Source: Armatimonadota bacterium
GTDB taxonomy: Bacteria; Armatimonadota; UBA5829; DSUL01
DNA: 64,000 nucleotides
Direction: 5' to 3'
Assembly (NCBI GenBank): GCA_039811685.1
Contig: JBDHZC010000005.1
Span: 72,057-136,056, forward strand
The position numbers and the translations under genes are program-made. The notes beneath the pieces were generated by a model. The model was given only the letters and a program-made list of their open reading frames with translations, searched no databases and had not been told where the DNA came from. Below are positions 1 to 9,716 of this stretch, one piece after another (position 1 is the first letter of the stretch; each line of letters opens with the position of its first letter).

Positions 1-111
1 GATGCCTTGAGTGGGTTCTTTACGCCGACGGGTCAGTCCGGCTACTACCTCTACAAGAAGCAGTCGCCCAGCGACGTGCGGCTGGAAGGAAGAGAAGTTC
101 CGTACCCGTAG
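1..111 (+). CDS. Small peptide, 5'-truncated at window edge (…DALSGFFTPTGQSGYYLYKKQSPSDVRLEGREVPYP*); paralog of the peptide at 4820..4939
   Basis: Reading frame from position 1 to TAG at 109-111. It is 85-90% identical at nt and aa level to the 39-aa ORF at 4820..4939, which lies just downstream of an E element. The flanks are also duplicated. Confidence 0.35.
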   Translation, partial: DALSGFFTPTGQSGYYLYKKQSPSDVRLEGREVPYP

Positions 112-135
112 CGCCTATCGGCGAAAGAGGATGAA

Positions 136-1128
136 ATGTTTCGACAGTTGATCTGGTTTGTCACAGCAGCGCTCCCTTTGCTCGCACTTGTGCTCGCCGC
201 GGCCGCGTGCGGTGCAAGCGATATTCCGGTCGCTGTGCCCGCCCCCGGAGAGCCGCCTGTTCTGTTCGCTGCCGAGTCAGCAGGTGTGCTCTACACGGCA
301 ACTCTGGAGGCGGACAAGCGCGTTGCGGTCATCGCCGCCCTGCCGCTTGATCGAGTTGCGGAAAAACGGACTTACACAGTGCCGGTACCCGCTCTCGAAT
401 ACGAAAGTTTCCAGCGGCTCCGCTGGAGACTGGGCAGCGGATACGCGTGGCTGCTGCCAACGGTGCTGACGAATGGTGGCTTACGCCGCTACCCGATGTA
501 TCGCATTCCGCGCAGCGAACTCGACAAACTCCTCCACGGCAGTAACGAAGCCAGCGGAAGCGGCTTGAAAGACATGTGGTTTCCGCCGGGCTTTGCGCCA
601 CTCACACGCGCGGACGATGAATCCGGGGTGAAAGGGCAGCCGATCTACGGAGACTTCTACCCTATCTCTACATCAGCTATCCGGCAGTTCATTTTGCAGG
701 GCAGCGTACTGAGCGTCTGGGACTACATCGGAAACCCAGACGCCAAGCGGCCTGGGGGAAGTGACAGAGACCTCACTCCCGTGGCTGACCGAGAGCGGTA
801 CTTCAACTGGGTCCGCGTGGTGAAGCTGAAGGCGCCTTTTACGGAGTCCTTCCACGCGTTTCCTCAGAAGGGCGGGTTCCTGCTGGTTACGGACTCCGGC
901 GCGCTCTACTCCATCACGGGCATCAGCACCGGTACTCCAGCGATACGCAGGGTGGATCTGGGCGACGAGCAGATCAGGGTTATCGTGCAGACGGAGGGTG
1001 GATCGGCCATTGCGGCGACGCAGACGAAGCGCCTCGATCTGTCCTCGGCGCCGAAGCTGTCGCCGCTTTCGCATCCGCACAGCTCACCGACGGCTGCGGC
1101 CCTTGAGCTGGCCAAAGCGCTGAAGTAG
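136..1128 (+). CDS. Secreted protein/putative lipoprotein, P-family paralog (330 aa)
   Basis: ATG with upstream GAGGA. N-terminal hydrophobic signal with LAAAAC lipobox-like motif. Near-identical copy at 4964..5956. C-terminus …LELAKALK is shared with 3400..4482 and 7300..8325. Confidence 0.6.
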   Translation: MFRQLIWFVTAALPLLALVLAAAACGASDIPVAVPAPGEPPVLFAAESAGVLYTATLEADKRVAVIAALPLDRVAEKRTYTVPVPALEYESFQRLRWRLGSGYAWLLPTVLTNGGLRRYPMYRIPRSELDKLLHGSNEASGSGLKDMWFPPGFAPLTRADDESGVKGQPIYGDFYPISTSAIRQFILQGSVLSVWDYIGNPDAKRPGGSDRDLTPVADRERYFNWVRVVKLKAPFTESFHAFPQKGGFLLVTDSGALYSITGISTGTPAIRRVDLGDEQIRVIVQTEGGSAIAATQTKRLDLSSAPKLSPLSHPHSSPTAAALELAKALK

Positions 1129-1181
1129 TAGCGGGGTCGGCCGCGCTCAGTGAAGGAAGTCAGCCATCGCGGAGTCAAAGA

Positions 1182-1358
1182 ATGGAGAAACAAGTAGCTC
1201 AGGCGCAGCAAACCGTTCTGACTCTTGAAGCTGCGACAGCTACCTGCGCCGATTGGAAGCAGTGGTGGGCCGAGAACCAGAGCCAGTTTCAGTCCGGCAC
1301 CAGGAGCAAAGCTGAAGCTGCGGCCTTCGAACCAGCCGAACCCGCAACGGAGCAGTAG
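1182..1358 (+). CDS. W-module small protein (58 aa, MEKQVAQAQQTVLTLEAATATCADWKQWWAENQSQF…)
   Basis: ATG 1182 preceded by a conserved GAAGGAAG-containing leader. Homologous to the ORF at 8379..8555 and to the C-terminal ~50 aa of the HEAT protein at 6209..7165. Ends at the TAG that begins E copy 1. Confidence 0.45.
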   Translation: MEKQVAQAQQTVLTLEAATATCADWKQWWAENQSQFQSGTRSKAEAAAFEPAEPATEQ

Positions 1359-1461
1359 CGGAGGAACAGCGCTTCATCCGCGCAGGTGTCCTCACCTGCG
1401 CATAGAATTGGCGAATCTTTCACCCACTGGCTCCAGGTGGGGACATCTGGAGAGATGTAAA
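1356..1461 (+). repeat. E element copy 1 (~105 nt structured repeat: 5' arm agcggaggaacagcgcttcatcc, hairpin 1, spacer, hairpin 2, GGAGAG-ATG-TAA)
   Basis: One of six near-identical copies. Hairpin 1 is gcgcaggtg-tcct-cacctgcgc at 1380..1401. Hairpin 2 is ctccag-N10-ctggag at 1431..1452. ATG 1455-1457 is followed immediately by TAA. Confidence 0.8.
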
Positions 1462-1553
1462 TGGGGGCCCTTCTGCCAGACTGGGACGATGATGATCCCA
1501 ATCTGAACGGGGCGGAGAACGAGGACCTGGACCAGGTGACACGCGTCGAATGA
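1461..1553 (+). CDS. Acidic small peptide (30 aa, MGALLPDWDDDDPNLNGAENEDLDQVTRVE)
   Basis: Its ATG directly abuts the TAA of the E minimal uORF (ATGTAAATG). Its stop TGA 1551-1553 overlaps ATG 1550-1552 (ATGA). Coding status is uncertain. Confidence 0.3.
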   Translation: MGALLPDWDDDDPNLNGAENEDLDQVTRVE

Positions 1554-1561
1554 GGAGACCA

Positions 1562-3034
1562 ATGGTTTACAATGGAGTTATGGTCGTCGCCCGGCAGAAA
1601 GGCCCTGCCGGCCACTATGCAGCTGTCCTCGCGATAGCCGCATTCGTGTCCGCAGTGTGTGCTGCACAAGCGGCGTGCGAACTGCCAACTCACGGTTGGG
1701 AGTTCACAGTCGCAGCGGAGCACACGCCGGCTGTAGCGATCAGTAGAGACGGCTCGCGCATCGCCGTTTCCGACTGGGCGGCCATCTATCTACTTGACCG
1801 GCAGGGCAAGGTGCTGTGGACCGCGAAGGCGCCACCGAAGAGTGGCTTCGGAGTGACCGCCATCTCTGACACCGGCCATCGTGTGCTGTGCTGGAAGATT
1901 CGGCGCCTCCCAAGTGTGGACAACGAGGATATCGACTACAACGCGGTGCTCTTCAACGGCGCCAACGGGCAGGTGCTGACCGAGATCGAGCTGGACGGGG
2001 GCCGAGTGCCGACGGCGCTGTCTGGCGATGGACGGTATATTCTGGCGGGCTATCCGCCGGACGGCCTGGGCCTGGAAATGGCAGCACAGCCTGATCCCGC
2101 CAACTACCTCATGCTCTTAGATGACACCGGCAAGACCGTCTGGCGCTCAGACAAGCTTGCCCAAAAGCCCGTTGTCGGAGCGGCTTACGGCTTTTTATCC
2201 CACACCGGTTCCTATGCGCTGCTCGGCGCAAAAGACCGCCTGAACCTTGTGACCATCGGCGGCTATCACCTTTTCGACATTGCACTGACGTCAGACCCTG
2301 CCGTTTCCGCCGACGCTGACTTGATCATGATGGGCGCCACACCCGTGTTGTCCACAGACGTTCAGAAGTATGAGACCGCATGGCCTGTTGTCGCGCCACA
2401 GGGTGAGCAAGAGCCGCAGACATGGGGCCATGAGTCCTTTGGCTTCAAGACGTACACTGCAGCCGCGGCGCTCGCCTTGGTCCGCGTCGGGGATGTGGCC
2501 GAGGAGTCGCCTCCCCCGAACCGGCGGCATCCCTTTGCGGAGCTGGTGTGGGCGCATGGCGAGATCTGGGCGGGAAACCGGGAACGAGTGCTGGATGCGC
2601 CGAAGCTTCCGCCCATTCCCGCCGGTAATCCTGGACGGCGCGGGGTTGCCTACGGATCGGCTGGGCTGCTGGCAATTGTCGACCACACGCTGTTGGCGGC
2701 AGAGCTTGGGCAGGAGCACGCGGTGAAGTTGCTACGCCTGCCAGGGCTGGGGATTGTGAAAAGGGTCGGCGTGTCCAGCAACGCTTCCCGCGCCTACACT
2801 CTCGTCGCCGTCCCCGCTGGGTCCGATCTAGTGGGACGCGGCCCCAGCACGGGTTCGGCGGCTTCCGCTCTTGTCTGCACCGTCTGGGACAGGTCTGCCA
2901 AACCTGTTGCAACAATGCCTCTTTCAGAGCAGGAGAGGCCCTTCGCGATAGCCTTCTCCCACGCAGGCGATCTCCTGATCCTAGCGTGGAAGGGTAAGGT
3001 GCAGGCGTTCGAGATCGGAGGCGTCGCCAGGTAA
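1562..3034 (+). CDS. Secreted beta-propeller-like (PQQ/WD40-like repeat) protein
   Basis: 494-aa ORF; ATG 1562 preceded by GAGGAG at good spacing (alternative ATG 1550). Hydrophobic N-terminus and repeated …DG..IAVSD/…LLD.QGKVLW-like strands. It occupies the same position as the P-family genes between E copies 1 and 2. Confidence 0.5.
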   Translation: MVYNGVMVVARQKGPAGHYAAVLAIAAFVSAVCAAQAACELPTHGWEFTVAAEHTPAVAISRDGSRIAVSDWAAIYLLDRQGKVLWTAKAPPKSGFGVTAISDTGHRVLCWKIRRLPSVDNEDIDYNAVLFNGANGQVLTEIELDGGRVPTALSGDGRYILAGYPPDGLGLEMAAQPDPANYLMLLDDTGKTVWRSDKLAQKPVVGAAYGFLSHTGSYALLGAKDRLNLVTIGGYHLFDIALTSDPAVSADADLIMMGATPVLSTDVQKYETAWPVVAPQGEQEPQTWGHESFGFKTYTAAAALALVRVGDVAEESPPPNRRHPFAELVWAHGEIWAGNRERVLDAPKLPPIPAGNPGRRGVAYGSAGLLAIVDHTLLAAELGQEHAVKLLRLPGLGIVKRVGVSSNASRAYTLVAVPAGSDLVGRGPSTGSAASALVCTVWDRSAKPVATMPLSEQERPFAIAFSHAGDLLILAWKGKVQAFEIGGVAR

Positions 3035-3237
3035 CCCGGGTCGAGAACCCAATGCAGTTGACTTACTACGCCGACTGGAACTCAGAGACCGTAGCGATGG
3101 CCGGACTGCTTGCCGGAGGGGACGGCCAGTGCGGCTCCGCCTCAGGCGCAGCACGACGGCCTGGAGGGCCCGGCCTAGCAGCAGATGGTCGCCTGTCTCA
3201 CGGATATGAAGACCGCGCTGGGGTGTCCCCAGGCTAT

Positions 3238-3328
3238 GCTTCATCCGCGCAGGTGTCCTCACCTGCGCATAGAATTGGCGAGTCCTTCGCCCACTGGCTC
3301 CAGATGGGGACACCTGGAGAGATGTAAA
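3238..3328 (+). repeat. E element copy 2 (5' arm degenerate)
   Basis: gcttcatccgcgcaggtgtcctcacctgcgcatagaattggcgagtccttcgcccactggctccagatggggacacctggagagatgtaaa, with ATG 3322-3324 and TAA 3325-3327. The upstream 200 nt look like a decayed W-module. Confidence 0.75.
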
Positions 3329-3399
3329 GCTCGACCTGATATCGAGTGACGTAGCCGGCAGGGAAGCCTCGTATCCATAGCGTTAGAAGGAGTCACTAG

Positions 3400-4482
3400 A
3401 TGAAGATCACCGCTGTTGCCAAAGCTCTTCTTGTCTGTTGGTTGGCGGTCGACGCCGTCAGCCCTGCCGTCGCCGAGAGCTATCTATTCAGTGAAGAGAC
3501 GAAGCACCCCCTGATCGTCCAGCGCCCGCTGACAGGCATACTGGTTGATGAGACTATGTACACTCTCTCGATCGCGCCAGAGTCGGGCTATGCGCCTGTA
3601 CTGACGGAGACGCCGATGACCGCGCTTGCCGCGCCTGTCAGCTACGCTCTCACCGCAGTAGCCGACGCCAGACGCCCGGCCTTTCCTGTTCACTGGTCGC
3701 TGCGTGGAGGTTTTGTTTGGACGTTGACTGAGTCCGATACGCCGCTGAGTGGCATAGTGCCGTTTTACTTCAGTCTTCAGCGGACTGCGCTGACTGGCCT
3801 GGAGCCGTGTGCCGCAGCCACCACGCATGTGGTCAAGCCCGGTACTGTTGCCGATGTGTGGCACGCTCATCTGGCTAAGTGGGAGCGTGTCGCTTTCACT
3901 GAGCCCGAGACGCTGAACGACGCGACGCGGGCCGCCCGGCCTCCCGAGGTACCCTATCCTCTTGCCGCTATCGTGGTGACGGGACCGGTGACCGTCCAGC
4001 TTTTCCAGTTGACCGCCCCACATATGATGGGATGGGAGTACCGTGGGCCGGAGAAGCCTCGGCGGTGGAAAGCCGCGTTTGGGCCGGGGATGGCGCCGAT
4101 CTCTCCCGAGAGTCAGCGGGGCGTGCCTCTCAAGGAGCGTACTCACTCCGGCGACTGGTGGCGCATAGGGATGTTCGACGTTCCCTTCAGCGAGGCCTAG
4201 GAAGTGGCCAAGGTCGAAGGTACCTACTACGCCGTGACACAGAGCGGAGAGGTTTTCTCTCTGGGCGACCTTACCGGGAAAGTAAAGAAGATCGACATAG
4301 GAGGCAGACGTGTGACGGCGATTCTGACGCTGGAGGAGAGCGGAAAGGTGTATCTTTGTTCGCATGAGGACTACGCGCCGCTGTCGGATTCGCCTGGATT
4401 CAAATCCATTCCTGGAGGACACCCAGACGTCACCAGATCGGCAACGCAGTGCCTGCTGGACCTGGCGAAGGCGTTGAACTAG
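3400..4482 (+). pseudogene. P-family paralog interrupted by a single in-frame TAG (3400..4200 plus 4204..4482 in the same frame)
   Basis: Signal peptide at N-terminus. The last ~90 aa (…GGRRVTAILTLEESGKVYLCSHEDYAPLSDSPGFKSIPGGHPDVTRSATQCLLDLAKALN) are near-identical to the C-terminus of 7300..8325. TAG at 4198-4200 is in frame and flanked by homologous sequence on both sides. Confidence 0.5.
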
Positions 4483-4538
4483 CGCAGGGACTGCCATCCG
4501 CACGCAGTGAAGGAAGGCAGCCATCGCGGAGTCAAAGA

Positions 4539-4716
4539 ATCGAGAAATGAGCGGCTCAGGCGCAGTAAAGCGATCTGAATCTGAAGGCCGCGGAAGCTGC
4601 CAGGTCCGATTGGGAGCAGTGGCGGGCAGAGGACCAGAGCCAGTTTCAGTCCGGCACCAAGATCAAAGCTGAGGCTGGCGCACCCTCGATGTCGCCCGGC
4701 CCCGCGGCTCAGCCGT
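4539..4716 (+). pseudogene. W-module small ORF, degenerate copy (start ATG to ATC, internal TAA)
   Basis: Aligns to 1182..1358 and 8379..8555. Start codon mutated (aatCgagaa), stop within 'cagtaaagc', and a diverged middle. The 3' end …WEQWRAEDQSQFQSGTKIKAEAGAPSMSPGPAAQP* is retained. Confidence 0.5.
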
Positions 4717-4818
4717 AGCGGAGGAACAGCGCTTCATCCGTGCAGATGAGCGCATCTGCGCATAGAATTGGCGAATCTTTCACCCACTGGCTCCAGGTGG
4801 GGACACTTGGAGAGATGT
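4716..4818 (+). repeat. E element copy 3
   Basis: Hairpin 1 gtgcagatg-agcg-catctgcgc is a compensatory variant. Hairpin 2 is ctccag…cttggag. ATG 4815-4817 is followed by TGA, which overlaps the ATG of the next ORF (ATGTGATG). Confidence 0.8.
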
Positions 4819-4819
4819 G

Positions 4820-4939
4820 ATGCAAGACGATGCGTTGAGCGGGTTCTTTAGGCCGGCGGGTCAGTCCGGCTACTACCTCTACAAGAAGCAGTCGCCCAGC
4901 GATGTGCGGCTGCAAGATACTGAAGTTCCGTACCCGTAG
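4820..4939 (+). CDS. Small peptide (39 aa, MQDDALSGFFRPAGQSGYYLYKKQSPSDVRLQDTEVPYP)
   Basis: ATG overlaps the stop of the E minimal uORF. Conserved in the duplicate at window start (1..111), with mostly conservative changes. Confidence 0.4.
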   Translation: MQDDALSGFFRPAGQSGYYLYKKQSPSDVRLQDTEVPYP

Positions 4940-4963
4940 CGCCTATCGGCGAAAGAGGATGAA

Positions 4964-5956
4964 ATGTTTCGACAGTTGATCTGGTTTGTCACAGCAGCGC
5001 TCCCTTTGCTCGCACTTGTGCTCGCCGCGGCCGCGTGCGGTGCAAGCGATATTCCGGTCGCTGTGCCCGCCCCCGGAGAGCCGCCTGTTCTGTTCGCTGC
5101 CGAGTCAGCAGGTGTGCTCTACACGGCAACTCTGGAGGCGGACAAGCGCGTTGCGGTCATCGCCGCCCTGCCGCTTGATCGAGTTGCGGAAAAACGGACT
5201 TACACAGTGCCGGTACCCGCTCTCGAATACGAAAGTTTCCAGCGGCTCCGCTGGAGACTGGGCAGCGGATACGCGTGGCTGCTGCCAACGGTGCTGACGA
5301 ATGGTGGCTTACGCCGCTACCCGATGTATCGCATTCCGCGCAGCGAACTCGACAAACTCCTCCACGGCAGTAACGAAGCCAGCGGAAGCGGCTTGAAAGA
5401 CATGTGGTTTCCGCCGGGCTTTGCGCCACTCACACGCGCGGACGATGAATCCGGGGTGAAAGGGCAGCCGATCTACGGAGACTTCTACCCTATCTCTACA
5501 TCAGCTATCCGGCAGTTCATTTTGCAGGGCAGCGTACTGAGCGTCTGGGACTACCGCGGAAACCCAGACGCCAAGCGGCCTGCGGAAAGTGACAGAGACC
5601 TCACTCCCGTGGCTGACCGAGAGCATTACTTCGACTGGGTCCGCGTGGTGAAGCTGGAGGCGCCTTTCACGGAGTCCTTCCACGCGTTTCCTCAGAAGGG
5701 CGGGTTCCTGCTGGTTACGGACTCCGGCGCGCTCTACTCCGTCGCGGGCATCAGCACCGGCACTCCAGCGATACGCAGGGTGGATCTGGGCGACGAGCAG
5801 ATCAGAGTTATCGTGCAGACGGAGGGTGGATCGGCCATTGCGGCGACGCAGACGAAGCGCCTCGAGCTGTCCTCGGCGCCGAAGCTGTCGCCGCTTTCGC
5901 ATCCGCACAGCTCACCGACGGCTGCGGCCCTCGATCTGGCCAAAGCGCTGAAGTAG
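4964..5956 (+). CDS. Secreted protein/putative lipoprotein, P-family paralog (330 aa); recent duplicate of 136..1128
   Basis: About 97% aa identity to 136..1128. The upstream 140 nt are also duplicated. Followed directly by TAGTAG and E copy 4; the W-module ORF is absent here. Confidence 0.6.
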   Translation: MFRQLIWFVTAALPLLALVLAAAACGASDIPVAVPAPGEPPVLFAAESAGVLYTATLEADKRVAVIAALPLDRVAEKRTYTVPVPALEYESFQRLRWRLGSGYAWLLPTVLTNGGLRRYPMYRIPRSELDKLLHGSNEASGSGLKDMWFPPGFAPLTRADDESGVKGQPIYGDFYPISTSAIRQFILQGSVLSVWDYRGNPDAKRPAESDRDLTPVADREHYFDWVRVVKLEAPFTESFHAFPQKGGFLLVTDSGALYSVAGISTGTPAIRRVDLGDEQIRVIVQTEGGSAIAATQTKRLELSSAPKLSPLSHPHSSPTAAALDLAKALK

Positions 5957-6062
5957 TAGCGGGGGAACAGCGCTTCATCCGCGCAGATGAGCTCATCTGC
6001 GCAAAGCATTGGCGAGTCCTTCACCCACTGGCTCCAGGTGGGGACACCTGGAGAGATGTAAA
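5957..6062 (+). repeat. E element copy 4
   Basis: Hairpin 1 is gcgcagatg-agct-catctgcgc. ATG 6056-6058 and TAA 6059-6061. Confidence 0.8.
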
Positions 6063-6071
6063 GCGACGTTC

Positions 6072-6212
6072 GTGGCGGCAATCAACCAGGAGAGGATCGC
6101 GGGTGATAAGGATTACGAGGAGCAGGCCTACGGCGCGGAGGCCGTGTGCGAAATGGACCTGCTGGAGGAGACGTGCGCGTACGTCACGCCGCCATGTGAG
6201 GCGTGTCCATGA
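6072..6212 (+). CDS. Acidic 4-Cys small peptide A (…DKDYEEQAYGAEAVCEMDLLEETCAYVTPPCEACP); start codon uncertain (GTG 6072?)
   Basis: Open frame from the E element to TGA 6210-6212, which overlaps ATG 6209 of the HEAT gene (ATGA). Homologous to peptide B at 8660..8782 with pattern C-x8-C-x6/7-C-x2-C. Confidence 0.4.
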   Translation: MAAINQERIAGDKDYEEQAYGAEAVCEMDLLEETCAYVTPPCEACP

Positions 6213-7165
6213 CCATGGTATGCAGTCCTAGAACGGAGGTCGTTTTGAAACTCTTTATTGTGCTACTGCTTGCTGCTGCTCTTTGTGTTACGGCAATATC
6301 CGAGGGTGCGTCGGCCGAGCGCACGTGTGCCGCCACCAGGTATTACCGCTCCACGGTTTCTGAGTTGGTCGGGCTGCTTTCGAGTGGGCTGTCTATCGAC
6401 CGGTTCGACGCGGCTCTCGAACTCGGGCGGCGAGGCGATGTGTCAGTGATCCCTGCAATGAAGGCTGCGCTTGGCGATCCGGAGCGTTTCGTGCGGATGC
6501 GGATAGCTGCTGCGCTGCTGGATCTCGGCGATCGAAGCGGCGTGGAGGTACTTCACGAAGTTGTTACGTCGGGTGAGCCCTACTGGAGTCTGGCAGCGGC
6601 GGAGGTGCTTGCCCATCACGGTGACACCTTTGGCCGTGATCTCATCAGGAAGGCTCACTCTTCGAGCAGTTGGGTCGCTCGCTCCTCAGCCTTAAGGGCC
6701 TCGGCCGACCTTCCGGAGGGGCCGCCCTACGACGCCGTGGCTGCCGGACTGGAGGACTCGCAGCAGATTGTCCGCTTGACCGCCCTGAGGGCTGCTCAAA
6801 TGTGCCATGACCCCCGGGTGAAGGATCTGGTCCGCAAGGCGTTGTCTTCTTCCGATACGCTTCTGAGGGCGCGCGCGGCCATCATAATTGCGGAGGAGGG
6901 GCAGCCCGCAGACATTCCGGCTCTGATAGCGCTGTTGACAGCTCCGGATGGGGTTACCCGTTCTGCCGTTCTCAGAGCACTGCAGTCGCTGACGGGGCGT
7001 GCTTCTCCGTCGAAAACCGTTCTGACTCTTAAGGCTGCGACAGCTATCCGCGCTGAGTGGGAGCAGTGGTGGGCCGAGAACCAGAGCCAGTTCCCGCCTG
7101 GTACCAAGATCAAAGCTGAGGCTGGCGCACCCTCGGTGTCGCCCGGACCCGCGGCTCAGCCGTAG
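6209..7165 (+). CDS. Secreted HEAT-repeat (PBS-lyase/E-Z type) protein with C-terminal W-module
   Basis: Signal peptide (LKLFIVLLLAAALCV). Tandem repeats of the …LG(D)xxxxxxLxxxLxDxxxxVRxxAAxAL… type. The last ~50 aa (KTVLTLKAATAIRAEWEQWWAENQSQFPPGTKIKAEAGAPSVSPGPAAQP) match the free-standing W-module ORFs. GTG 6203 is an alternative start. Confidence 0.6.
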   Translation: MTMVCSPRTEVVLKLFIVLLLAAALCVTAISEGASAERTCAATRYYRSTVSELVGLLSSGLSIDRFDAALELGRRGDVSVIPAMKAALGDPERFVRMRIAAALLDLGDRSGVEVLHEVVTSGEPYWSLAAAEVLAHHGDTFGRDLIRKAHSSSSWVARSSALRASADLPEGPPYDAVAAGLEDSQQIVRLTALRAAQMCHDPRVKDLVRKALSSSDTLLRARAAIIIAEEGQPADIPALIALLTAPDGVTRSAVLRALQSLTGRASPSKTVLTLKAATAIRAEWEQWWAENQSQFPPGTKIKAEAGAPSVSPGPAAQP

Positions 7166-7267
7166 CGGAGGAACAGCGCTTCATCCGTGCAGAGGAGCGC
7201 ATCTGCGCATGGACTTGGCGAATCTTTCGCCCACTGGCTCCAGATGGGGACACCTGGAGAGATGTAA
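7163..7267 (+). repeat. E element copy 5
   Basis: Starts at the TAG of the HEAT gene. Hairpin 1 gtgcagagg-agcg-catctgcgc has one mismatch. ATG 7262-7264 and TAA 7265-7267. Confidence 0.8.
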
Positions 7268-7299
7268 GTCGCGAATACTGAGCGCAACTGAGATGCACA

Positions 7300-8325
7300 A
7301 TGAGAAGCAAAGGACACAGTAAAATGAGGGTACGGAAACGGCCTCTTCTTCTTCTCTTCGGAGTCCTACTTGTCACCACTCCACCAGCTGTCGGGCAGCC
7401 GTCTCCTGGTGTTCGCCTACGTCCTGGTCAAAGCCAACTGGTGCAGACTCCGCTGACGGCCTCTTCACGTGCGGGCGTTCTTTACACAGTGATCATTGAC
7501 AAAGGGCGTGCCTTGCTGCGGCAGACGCCTCTTGATACTTCATCGCCCGTTCGCTTCGCAAGTCTGGAGTCCTCCAGCCGTTTGACCGGTATCGGCCCGA
7601 TGTTTCCAGCGCATTGGGGACTTGCAGACGGCTTCCTTTGGTCGCTGGTTCTTGAAGAAGGAGACGCATACTGGGCCAGCCCACATCTAAGCCGCTTCGC
7701 GCTGGAGGACATGCGTCTCGTGGACCCGGACAACGCCCTTCCGCCTCGAGGCGCGCACCGCACAAGGCGCACAGAAGTCCCCCCGTATCCTCTCCTGGAT
7801 GCCATCGCGGAAGGGTCAAACCGTGACTTACTGGTCTTCCCCGCGCTTCAGCCCCTGTCGCGCAAATCCGTCCGCCTGTTCGTGCTGCAGCCGCCCGTGC
7901 TGACGGTATGGGTGAACGAAGACCCCGCGCTTTTCGCACCACGAACGTCCGGACGCAGCGTCGAAGGACGCGTGAAGGAAAAGGGCAGGATTGAGAACTG
8001 GTTGAAGGTTGCGTCTATCAGTGTTCCTTTCGCCGAGCCTTTCGAAGTTGTTGGGTGCGGTTCCGTCTGCTACTTCATCACAGGAAGCGGGGACCTCTAT
8101 GCAGATAAAGATCTGAAGGCAAGTCCGCAGAAGATCGACACAGGAGGCAGGCGCGTGACGGCGATTCTGACGCTGGAGGAGAGCGGAAAGGTGTATCTTT
8201 GTTCGCACGAGGACTACGCGCCGCTGTCGGATTCGCCTGGATTCAAATCCATTCCTGGAGGTCACCCAGGCGTCACCAGGTCGGCAACGCAGTGCCTGCT
8301 GGACCTGGCCAAAGCGCTGAAGTAG
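7300..8325 (+). CDS. Secreted protein, P-family paralog (341 aa)
   Basis: Basic N-terminus followed by a hydrophobic signal (RPLLLLFGVLLVTTPPAVG). Middle region recognisably homologous to 3400..4200. C-terminal 90 aa near-identical to 4204..4482, ending LLDLAKALK. Alternative start at 7324. Confidence 0.6.
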   Translation: MRSKGHSKMRVRKRPLLLLFGVLLVTTPPAVGQPSPGVRLRPGQSQLVQTPLTASSRAGVLYTVIIDKGRALLRQTPLDTSSPVRFASLESSSRLTGIGPMFPAHWGLADGFLWSLVLEEGDAYWASPHLSRFALEDMRLVDPDNALPPRGAHRTRRTEVPPYPLLDAIAEGSNRDLLVFPALQPLSRKSVRLFVLQPPVLTVWVNEDPALFAPRTSGRSVEGRVKEKGRIENWLKVASISVPFAEPFEVVGCGSVCYFITGSGDLYADKDLKASPQKIDTGGRRVTAILTLEESGKVYLCSHEDYAPLSDSPGFKSIPGGHPGVTRSATQCLLDLAKALK

Positions 8326-8378
8326 TAGCGGGGTCGGCCGCGCTCAGTGAAGGAAGTCAGCCATCGCGGAGTCAAAGC

Positions 8379-8555
8379 ATGGAGAAACGAGCGGCTCAGG
8401 CGCAGCAAACCGTTCTGACTCTTAAAGCTGCGACAGCTATCCGCTCCGATTGGGAGCAGTGGTGGGCCGAGAACCAGAGCCAGTTCCCGCCTGGCGCCAA
8501 GATCAAAGCTGAGGCCGCACCCCCGGCGTCGCCCGGACCCGCGGCTCAGCCGTAG
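8379..8555 (+). CDS. W-module small protein (58 aa, MEKRAAQAQQTVLTLKAATAIRSDWEQWWAENQSQFPPGAKIKAEAAPPASPGPAAQP)
   Basis: Same conserved leader (cagtgaaggaagtcagccatcgcggagtcaaag) and ATG context as 1182..1358. Ends at the TAG that starts E copy 6. Confidence 0.45.
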   Translation: MEKRAAQAQQTVLTLKAATAIRSDWEQWWAENQSQFPPGAKIKAEAAPPASPGPAAQP

Positions 8556-8659
8556 CGGTGGAACAGCGCTTCACCCGTGCAGAGGAGCGCATCTGCGCAT
8601 TGAATTGGCGCATCTTTCGCCCACTGGCTCCAGGTGGGGACATCTGGAGAGATGTAAAC
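8553..8659 (+). repeat. E element copy 6
   Basis: Hairpin 1 is gtgcagagg-agcg-catctgcgc. ATG 8652-8654 and TAA 8655-8657. Carries an internal TGA in the frame that is open in the other copies. Confidence 0.8.
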
Positions 8660-8782
8660 AAACAACGTGATGAAGAAGAAGCGTACTCCGAACAGGAGAT
8701 GTGCGAGAGGCTTACGTTGGACGACTGGTGTACATTTGGTATCCACGGGCCCTGCACGGCGTGCGATGATCTCAATGACTAG
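8660..8782 (+). CDS. Acidic 4-Cys small peptide B (…RDEEEAYSEQEMCERLTLDDWCTFGIHGPCTACDDLND); start codon unresolved
   Basis: Homolog of peptide A with the same Cys spacing and the conserved EE.AY…C.E motif. Ends at TAG 8780-8782, 20 nt upstream of the second HEAT gene. The only in-frame ATG is at 8699; the homology extends upstream of it. Confidence 0.35.
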   Translation, partial: KQRDEEEAYSEQEMCERLTLDDWCTFGIHGPCTACDDLND

Positions 8783-8801
8783 CAAGATGATGGAGGAAAG
8801 A

Positions 8802-9716
8802 ATGACGAAGATGGTAGCGCTGGTTCTAATCTGCGGGTGGTTCGGCTGGGGTGGTGTCTGTGCTGCGGGGCCGGCTACCCCTGTCACCGCCACAAATGGC
8901 TCAGCGACTCGTTCACCGGATTGTGACGAGGCGAGTGTCCCTGAATTGATTGCCATCCTTCGTGAGCGTGGAACCTTTGCTGTCCGTGCAGCACAGCTCC
9001 TTGCGGATCGCCACGCGACGTCTGCAATTCCGGATCTCGCGCTGTTGTTGACGGATCCGAAAATCTCTCTGCGGATAAATGCGGCGCGTGCAATGGCGCT
9101 CCTGGGAGACCGGAGCGGGTTACCAGTGCTGCGGGCGGCGCTGACAGAGGGTGACGATTTCCACGCCTCTATCGCGGCCGCTTTTCTGGCGCAGCTTGGC
9201 GACGACAGTGGGCGCGCGGTTTTGGAGAGGGAACTCAGTAGTCAAAACTGGATCGACCGGAGGCAGGCCCTGTACGCATTGGCGCTTCTTCCGGATGGTC
9301 TGTCTGATGTGGCTGTTGCAGCGGCTCTAGAGGACGAAAGGCCGGAGGTACAAAGAAGCGCGTTTCGTGTGGCCTGGAAAAATGCGTCTGATAGGGTGCG
9401 GGAGGTGTTGATTAAAAAGACACAGTCCCCGGATCCGCTTACCCGCTGGCGGGCGACTGAGGCCCTGTTTATGAGTAACCCGCACCGAAACGCAGAGATT
9501 GCTATTGGCATGATTACGGATCCGGACCGCCTCGTACAGGGACAAACATCCATGATGCTGGCGCATTTCTCCCGTGTGGCTGTGCCTCGGGTGAGCGGGT
9601 GGATGAGGAGTGCCGAGCGGGCAAGAGATCTCAAGCAGGCGTATCTGGAGTGGCTGGCGGTTAACAGGGACGTGGCGTTCCCGCCAACCGAGCCGGCGCC
9701 GCCTGCACCGCAATAG
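8802..9716 (+). CDS. Secreted HEAT-repeat (PBS-lyase type) protein with a diverged native W-like C-terminus
   Basis: GGAGG then ATG 8802. Signal peptide (MTKMVALVLICGWFGWGGVCAAG). HEAT repeats (…AARAMALLGDRSGLPVLRAAL…). C-terminal QAYLEWLAVNRDVAFPP resembles AIRAEWEQWWAENQSQFPP. An in-frame upstream ATG at 8667 would add a non-signal extension. Confidence 0.6.
   Translation: MTKMVALVLICGWFGWGGVCAAGPATPVTATNGSATRSPDCDEASVPELIAILRERGTFAVRAAQLLADRHATSAIPDLALLLTDPKISLRINAARAMALLGDRSGLPVLRAALTEGDDFHASIAAAFLAQLGDDSGRAVLERELSSQNWIDRRQALYALALLPDGLSDVAVAAALEDERPEVQRSAFRVAWKNASDRVREVLIKKTQSPDPLTRWRATEALFMSNPHRNAEIAIGMITDPDRLVQGQTSMMLAHFSRVAVPRVSGWMRSAERARDLKQAYLEWLAVNRDVAFPPTEPAPPAPQ

Follow-up and report, generated by a model that had tools for sequence, protein, structure and literature searches.

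What does the end of a repeated intergenic element do when it closes on a hairpin and is followed at once by ATG and a stop codon? The question arises in an Armatimonadota bacterium, where each cassette of a co-directional array of orphan genes (136..9716, + strand) is headed by such an element, here called E. In the 64,000 nucleotides that were analysed, referred to below as the window, E is present in six copies, and an initial annotation of this DNA had read its 3′ end as a hairpin that hides a Shine-Dalgarno (SD) sequence in front of a minimal ‘start-stop’ open reading frame. The letters on which that proposal was built are in place, since in all six copies CTCCAG and CTGGAG flank a loop, the second of these holds a buried GGAG, and ATG plus a stop codon follow.

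The array comprises seven genes on the + strand: A1 (136-1128), B (1562-3034), C1 (3400-4482, with an in-frame TAG), A2 (4964-5956), D1 (6245-7165), C2 (7300-8325) and D2 (8802-9716). Read by eye, the translations of all seven start with hydrophobic, signal-peptide-like N-termini. The array proteins matched no Pfam, NCBIfam or PADLOC family beyond the generic HEAT repeats of D1 and D2, and they have no homologue outside the species except via those repeats; searches with C2 and D1 returned only self-matches, plus two weak HEAT-repeat matches for D1. The annotated genes of window positions 1108-64000 include no transposase, RAYT, integrase or recombinase. A metagenome-assembled genome (MAG) of the same species (Armatimonadetes; GCA_020846715.1, contig JADLDK010000010.1) covers the array as far as window position 1108, where its contig ends, so that the window is 1107 nt longer, and the two differ at seven single bases (3033, 4377, 4645, 5010, 5170, 5179 and 6079). 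At 3033 the window has A and the MAG C, which creates a TAA and ends gene B at 3034 instead of 3061.

Several features of the array genes deserve mention in their own right. C1 is split by its in-frame TAG (4198-4200) into 3400-4200 and 4204-4482, and the TAG is present in both assemblies. The C1 paralogue C2 is intact, the 3′ parts of the two being 80% identical at the protein level, and C1 is either a pseudogene or a candidate for read-through. Two ORFs of 58 aa in the NCBI annotation (1182-1358 and 8379-8555), lying 5′ of E copies 1 and 6, are detached C-terminal tails of D1, the source of which is 7014-7165 (TVLTLKAATA...WWAENQSQF). A third, degenerate copy of this tail is found 5′ of E copy 3, at about 4540-4720; the D-tail and E travel together. 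The 222-nt D-tail remnant that follows A1 (1120-1370) is missing after A2 (5948-5971). Weak matches to naRNA4 (RF02564; 27 bits against a gathering threshold of 59.5, E = 0.14) inside the two A genes, at 432-492 and 5260-5320, are most likely due to chance.

The six copies of E occupy 1351-1461, 3218-3328, 4711-4821, 5952-6062, 7158-7268 and 8548-8658 on the + strand. All of them lie between annotated genes and within 9 kb, the remaining 55 kb of the window being free of E. A 36-nt pattern taken from the 3′ half of the element matched each copy with 0 mismatches and had no other site in the 64 kb (expected 0, from 100 shuffles). A seventh copy, which also keeps the ATG and stop and ends in ATGTGATG, is carried just upstream of the window by a Logan contig of the same species. 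Logan assemblies of seven other samples all break within E, indicating that the element is repetitive in those samples too.

The core of copy 1 runs from 1371 to 1460 (GCTTCATCC...GAGATGTAA) and is preceded by a 5′ extension, GTAGCGGAGGAACAGC, at 1355-1370; the cores of the other copies are 3238..3327, 4731..4820, 5972..6061, 7178..7267 and 8568..8657, again on the + strand. Copy 2 is the only one to lack both the 5′ extension and the D-tail, and because it diverges upstream of GCTTCATCC it defines a minimal E of about 90 nt (1371-1460 in copy 1). Copy 5 lies directly 3′ of the stop codon of D1, an intact HEAT-repeat gene. Copy 6 is the last, there being no E past the final gene of the array. 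Just 5′ of copy 2, GGTGTCCCCA (3222-3231) is the perfect complement of the hairpin 2 loop region of that copy (3305-3314) and forms part of a small palindrome, CTGGGG-TGT-CCCCAG, which may be the remnant of a third hairpin unit.

The 3′ boundary of E is abrupt and falls right after GATGTAA (GATGTGA in copy 3). The 90-nt cores are 84-94% identical in pairwise comparison (about 88%), whereas the adjoining 90 nt on the 3′ side agree at only 17-32%, the random level. The copies are paralogues, and the proteins encoded beside them have drifted to identities as low as 26-33%, from which it follows that the likeness of E is maintained by gene conversion, recent spread or selection. E does show concerted evolution with an abrupt 3′ boundary, ahead of cassettes that are otherwise strongly diverged. 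The variation that remains is patterned: variants in the 3′ part follow the type of the downstream cassette (GATG before both C-type cassettes, TGA before both A-type), while variants in the 5′ part follow the upstream sequence.

E is built on two hairpins of 9 bp, both based on CAG[G/A]TG-N4-CA[C/T]CTG. Hairpin 1 is found at 1380..1401 in copy 1 (GCGCAGGTG-TCCT-CACCTGCGC) and at 3247-3268, 4740-4761, 5981-6002, 7187-7208 and 8577-8598 in copies 2 to 6 (+ strand throughout). Hairpin 2 is found at 1431..1452 in copy 1 (CTCCAGGTG-GGGA-CATCTGGAG, with GGAG in its 3′ arm at 1449-1452) and at 3298-3319, 4791-4812, 6032-6053, 7238-7259 and 8628-8649 in the others. The initial annotation had described hairpin 2 as a 6-bp stem around a 10-nt loop; the stem is in fact 9 bp long and the loop is the 4-nt GGGA (1431-1452), the form across the copies being CTCCAGGTG-GGGA-CAYCTGGAG. 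An A.C mismatch interrupts the stem in copies 2 and 5, and the predicted free energy ranges from -9.8 kcal/mol in these two copies to -16.5 kcal/mol in copy 4. Between the two lies a small central hairpin, GGCGA-N5-TCNCC (1410..1424, + strand). All of its pairs form in copies 2 and 5, copy 6 is short of the terminal A-U pair, and copies 1, 3 and 4 contain a C.A mismatch. A closing helix joins CATC (1375-1378) to GATG (1454-1457), so that the ATG at the 3′ end of the element, whose terminus GATGTAA (1454..1460, + strand) holds ATG-TAA at 1455-1460, pairs with a CAT at its 5′ end. This marks E as a discrete element with inverted ends (TTCATC...GATGTAA).

In copies 1 and 2, hairpin 1 is the inverted complement of hairpin 2 (16 nt, 88%), with complementary loops, TCCT and GGGA, and as a consequence the minimum-energy structure of these copies is one long hairpin. 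In copies 3 to 6, hairpin 1 has been altered to CAGATG/CAGAGG...CATCTG, one pair being changed on both sides (G-C to A-T) and one broken, and it is no longer the mirror of hairpin 2. For copies 4 and 5 the prediction is a set of local hairpins under a CAUC/GAUG closing helix; copies 3 and 6 have other outer pairings in their predicted minimum-energy folds. A four-helix model of E is paired in 94% of cells across the copies, and covariation in the helices is not significant, 195 of 500 shuffles matching the observed score. One-sided changes in the stems are divided evenly between G.U and A.C on the + strand (three events each). There is thus no sign of selection at the level of a + strand RNA, and the even split is what a DNA palindrome undergoing neutral transitions would show. 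Across the whole 64 kb, perfect hairpins with stems of 8 bp or more are, with one exception, confined to E. An H-type pseudoknot between CCCAC and GTGGG involving hairpin 2 was rejected, since it would compete with the 9-bp stem and covariation gives it no support.

Attempts to place E among described elements were negative. Rfam 15 gave 0 hits in the window at the gathering threshold and, over E, only a chance-level match to SNORA43 (E = 2.8). A 23-mer specific to E had 0 matches in 185,579 species genomes, and a plasmid search with E found no match. A tRNA-like cloverleaf was dismissed when ARAGORN found no gene, a promoter inside E on account of there being no sigma-70-like match and a TAGAAT hexamer that varies among the copies, and a terminator for want of a T-tract. 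The possibility that ATG-TAA ends a stop-codon read-through extension was likewise set aside. ATG-TAA is in frame with an upstream TAG and the frame is open in five of the six copies, which by rough estimate is no more than chance would give (about 0.3); in addition, a TGA is present in copy 6, and the end of A2 reads TAGTAG.

The core hairpin, by contrast, does have relatives elsewhere. A metagenome scan with CTCCAGNTGGGGACANNTGGAG, which leaves three positions free, recovered nine loci, eight of which have letters at the free positions that complete a perfect palindrome, CCTCCAGGTG-GGGA-CACCTGGAGG. The variant CTCCAGGTRGGGAYACCTGGAG was found once each in contigs attributed to Propionibacteriaceae, Luteolibacter, Chloroflexota and an unclassified bacterium; one further occurrence is in an IMG/VR contig. 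These related hairpins are intergenic and have unrelated housekeeping genes on either side, with genes for an aminotransferase, an IF-2B-family protein (PF01008), a phosphoribosyltransferase, a rhamnosidase and an FGGY kinase, as well as greA, as neighbours. They often have an inverted copy 9-50 nt away with the loop TCCC or TCCT, the order being that of hairpin 1 followed by hairpin 2 in E. Their occurrence in both orientations in other genomes identifies the hairpin as a palindrome at the DNA level. Their conserved 3′ flank is GGAGG(G)AT-N, the equivalent in E being GGAGAGATG. Searches of 12 related loci against Rfam, at gathering and E-value thresholds, returned nothing relevant. It was also observed that a palindrome of 22-26 nt, CCTCCAGGTR-GGGA-YACCTGGAGG(G)AT, is identical between genes in contigs of several phyla and in one viral contig, in many cases as an inverted doublet. 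It corresponds to no Rfam family, nor did its sequence turn up in a search of the literature; it may be a mobile REP-like element.

On balance, E is probably a repeat of the REP-doublet (REPIN/BIME-like) type, namely a discrete intergenic palindrome of about 90 nt. REP doublets consist of two inverted REPs and a spacer, and form a hairpin in single-stranded DNA or mRNA (PMC3116915). E resembles them in being made of short, imperfect extragenic palindromes arranged as an inverted pair with a spacer, and copies 1 and 2 fold as a whole, as do REP doublets; related inverted doublets occur elsewhere. The six copies lie in register on the + strand inside 9 kb, and the similarity of their cores set against the random sequence that follows speaks for such an element, as do the lack of an Rfam match and an SD spacing which, as described below, disfavours the start-stop ATG and favours the ATGs at 1461 and 4820. 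There are, however, differences from the known class. REPs and REPINs are normally dispersed whereas E is clustered in one array, neither a RAYT nor a transposase or recombinase gene was seen in the annotated window (1108-64000), and E has no conserved GTAG, its conserved flank being an AT on one side. The inverted-doublet feature has eroded in copies 3 to 6. The link across phyla rests on about 26 nt, and a hairpin common to several phyla is atypical of REPs. That E heads every cassette, is absent after the last gene and has stayed about 88% identical despite the divergence around it suggests a cassette-linked function, which a selfish repeat does not need. E is a candidate member of the REPIN/BIME class and not an established one, as neither dispersal nor the GTAG motif is seen in the window, nor a RAYT gene among its annotated genes (1108-64000).

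Elements of the ERIC and Correia type offer a second comparison. They are about 100-150 nt long, have terminal inverted repeats, occupy transcribed intergenic sites and fold within the mRNA, whose stability or processing they alter. E is likewise an intergenic element with inverted ends, but no target-site duplication is visible at those ends.

As a REP-doublet-like repeat, E would have spread, or been homogenised, at the DNA level by recombination or gene conversion, or possibly by mobilisation, so as now to head every cassette of an array of fast-evolving genes whose proteins have signal-peptide-like N-termini. In a polycistronic transcript its stable hairpins would most likely act between cistrons, keeping them insulated from one another and protecting or processing the RNA. 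In the A- and B-type cassettes, the buried GGAG would act as the SD of the ORF at the edge of E, and hairpin 2 would lower the translation of that ORF.

This last point leads to the small ORFs at the edge of E. The initial annotation had them starting at or overlapping the stop codon of the minimal ORF, which holds for copies 1 and 3 and for the copy outside the window, but not for copies 2, 4, 5 and 6. In copy 1, ATGTAAATG opens an acidic ORF of 30 aa (1461..1553), and in copy 3 ATGTGATG opens an ORF of 39 aa (4820..4939), both on the + strand and both as first described. A second copy of the 39-aa ORF, with its 5′ end cut off, lies at window 1-112, implying that A1, the E of which lies upstream of the window, opens with the same small ORF. 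After copy 4 comes a Cys-rich acidic ORF of 46 aa (6072..6212, + strand), which is in the NCBI annotation, and after copy 6 a homologous Cys-rich acidic reading frame (8660..8782, + strand). The two share the pattern C-x8-C-x6/7-C-x2-C, and each lies between E and a HEAT-repeat gene.

These ORFs support a rival explanation, unlikely on the whole yet the strongest of the alternatives, in which E is a shared 5′ leader. In this account GGAG is the true SD of the small ORF of the cassette, ATGTAA is a mere spacer, and hairpin 2 is a translational operator through which the cassettes are co-regulated, its opening being brought about by temperature, a helicase or a binding factor. The aligned distance from GGAG to the ATG is 7 nt at 1461 and 6 nt at 4820. 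With such spacing, ATGTAA or ATGTG(A) in copies 1 and 3 is more simply seen as the stretch between SD and start. Four of the six cassettes that follow an E in the window (copies 1, 3, 4 and 6) begin with a small ORF of coding-like composition (GC1 > GC2 < GC3), copies 4 and 6 are followed by homologous peptides whose DNA cannot be aligned, and, as noted above, variants in the 3′ part of E follow the downstream cassette type. The first small ORF ends in a stop codon that shares bases with an ATG (ATGA, 1550-1553). That ATG is in the frame of gene B and the layout is typical of translational coupling; the NCBI annotation places the start of gene B at 1562. RNA thermometers and the expression platforms of riboswitches are SD-sequestering hairpins, and E copies 1 and 3 are like them in that a CUCC...GGAG stem buries an SD beside a start codon. 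They differ in that E has neither an aptamer nor an Rfam family, is a strand-symmetric DNA palindrome, and has the start codon in only some of its copies. Against a shared leader it also counts that copies 2 and 5 have no small ORF and carry A.C mismatches in the stem, that the ORF after copy 4 starts 17 nt from GGAG, that no canonical start codon lies between the end of copy 6 and the conserved residues of the 8660-8782 frame, and that the same hairpin occurs elsewhere in both orientations.

It is improbable, and more so than a shared leader, that E is a site-specific recombination site of the integron attC or rAID-1 kind, with crossover at the 3′ boundary and a recombinase gene located beyond the window, so that cassettes could be taken up, excised or reshuffled. 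In its favour, the 3′ boundary does not vary among six unrelated contexts, each cassette has a single E, the copies are mosaics of variants, and cassettes have been duplicated in near-identical form (A1 and A2, 97%). The element is palindromic with paired ends, and the array runs off the start of the window. Arrays of rAID-1 provide a precedent for recombinase-linked repeats between orphan genes (10.1101/471110). With these and with integrons E shares the layout of one partly palindromic repeat per cassette, sharp boundaries and co-directional, unrelated orphan genes. An integron has a site at the 3′ end of each cassette, and an IntI gene with attI heads its array. E, however, precedes its cassettes, with none after the last gene (the head of this array lies outside the window), and the consensus boxes of attC (R″ RYYYAAC and R′ GTTRRRY) are missing, the ends of E being GCTTCATCC and GAGATGTAA; identity with attC was rejected for this reason. 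Nor was an integrase or other recombinase gene found in the annotated window (1108-64000). Arrays of rAID-1 have a XerD-family recombinase, homologues of immunity genes and repetitive intergenic sequences, the last of which are present here. All cassettes are, moreover, co-oriented, and the A1/A2 junction, which lies in a 10-nt direct repeat (GTAGCGGRGG), fits an ordinary, simple deletion between short repeats.

A more elaborate proposal, of the same low probability, combines the two roles and makes E both the recombination site and the portable ribosome-binding module of an undescribed integron-like cassette system in Armatimonadota. Each cassette would consist of a gene for a small acidic peptide and one for a protein with a signal-peptide-like N-terminus, a recombinase encoded upstream of the window would capture or shuffle the cassettes at GATG|TAA, and the buried GGAG would give regulated initiation to any ORF that lands at the edge of E.

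The start-stop model, to which the opening question was addressed, is less probable still, and distinctly doubtful. It holds that ribosomes load when hairpin 2 opens, stop at once and reinitiate nearby, with E as the expression platform of a riboregulator. The ATG and stop are found at 1455-1460 (ATGTAA), 3322-3327, 4815-4820 (ATGTGA), 6056-6061, 7262-7267 and 8652-8657 on the + strand. The stop is TAA in five copies and TGA in copy 3, so that every copy has a start followed directly by a stop, as a minimal ORF requires; the same is true of the seventh copy. The GGAG lies in a stable stem, with a predicted probability of being unpaired that is mostly below 0.1 in all copies, and the next start codon abuts the stop in copy 1 and overlaps it in copy 3.

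The agreement of the copies, which the initial annotation had taken as unusual conservation, carries less weight than it seems. The arrangement does recur in all six, but these are paralogues and do not constitute independent evidence, and the ATG and stop are no better kept than the surrounding bases. The only change, TAA to TGA in copy 3, is a transition, and of the three transitions that TAA can undergo two still give a stop. Beyond the paralogues the arrangement is not conserved: among 17 related hairpins in other organisms the triplet equivalent to ATG is ATA in eight, ATG in five, ATC in two, ATT in one and another triplet in one, and a stop follows in 0 of the 17.

The geometry is also against a working initiation site. 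The gap between GGAG and ATG, given initially as 4 nt, is 2 nt (AG), and the aligned SD spacing, counted from GGAG(A), is 1 nt. By comparison, the 23 of 51 annotated genes in the window that have an SD-like motif show aligned spacings of 4-12 nt, none of them below 4, and the main array genes have spacings of 5-6 nt. In E. coli, SD spacings as short as 1 nt severely impair initiation. GGAG is, furthermore, predicted to be paired with a probability above 0.9 in most copies, and the ATG itself lies inside the closing helix. Four of the six copies have no codon for reinitiation, and the riboregulator part of the model finds no Rfam aptamer and no significant covariation.

Operational start-stops do occur in E. 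coli genes (10.1101/520783), which makes the idea a legitimate one, but the instance in E lacks both the geometry and the independent conservation. The E. coli examples (yecJ and hslR) lie inside genes and have demonstrated ribosome binding; E has an SD spacing outside the range of its own genome and a base-paired ATG. We infer that GGAG-AG-ATG-TAA is the 3′ arm of hairpin 2 together with the 3′ terminal inverted repeat. Most likely, then, the ATG and stop of E are an incidental by-product of its inverted ends, and not a functional minimal ORF or a ribosome-loading device. One part of the original idea is partly supported in reduced form: the GGAG is predicted to be almost wholly paired in all copies, and hairpin 2 would accordingly damp initiation wherever GGAG acts as an SD.

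The remaining alternative, that E or its 3′ half is protein-coding and supplies a conserved N-terminal leader to variable peptides, is scarcely credible: a TTG frame (from 1408) has four synonymous substitutions in the 3′ half and ORFs spanning E continue into the Cys-rich peptides after copies 4 and 6, but these two ORFs cross E in different frames and the reading frames are inconsistent among the copies, another four substitutions in that TTG frame are non-synonymous, no SD precedes the TTG, the tails after E are unrelated and range from 3 to 49 codons, and a search with the ORF spanning E and a Cys-rich peptide found no homologue.

Were the start-stop reading true, E would be a rare bacterial leader based on a minimal ORF. 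The evidence points to ATG-TAA being an incidental feature where a palindromic repeat ends, and a place in catalogues of translational devices is not warranted. Of continuing note is a 90-nt palindrome that is 84-94% identical in front of cassettes with proteins at 26-33% identity, and whose core hairpin is common to intergenic palindromes in several other phyla. It suggests that, in a phylum of which little is known, orphan genes for proteins with signal-peptide-like N-termini have undergone concerted evolution or cassette shuffling.
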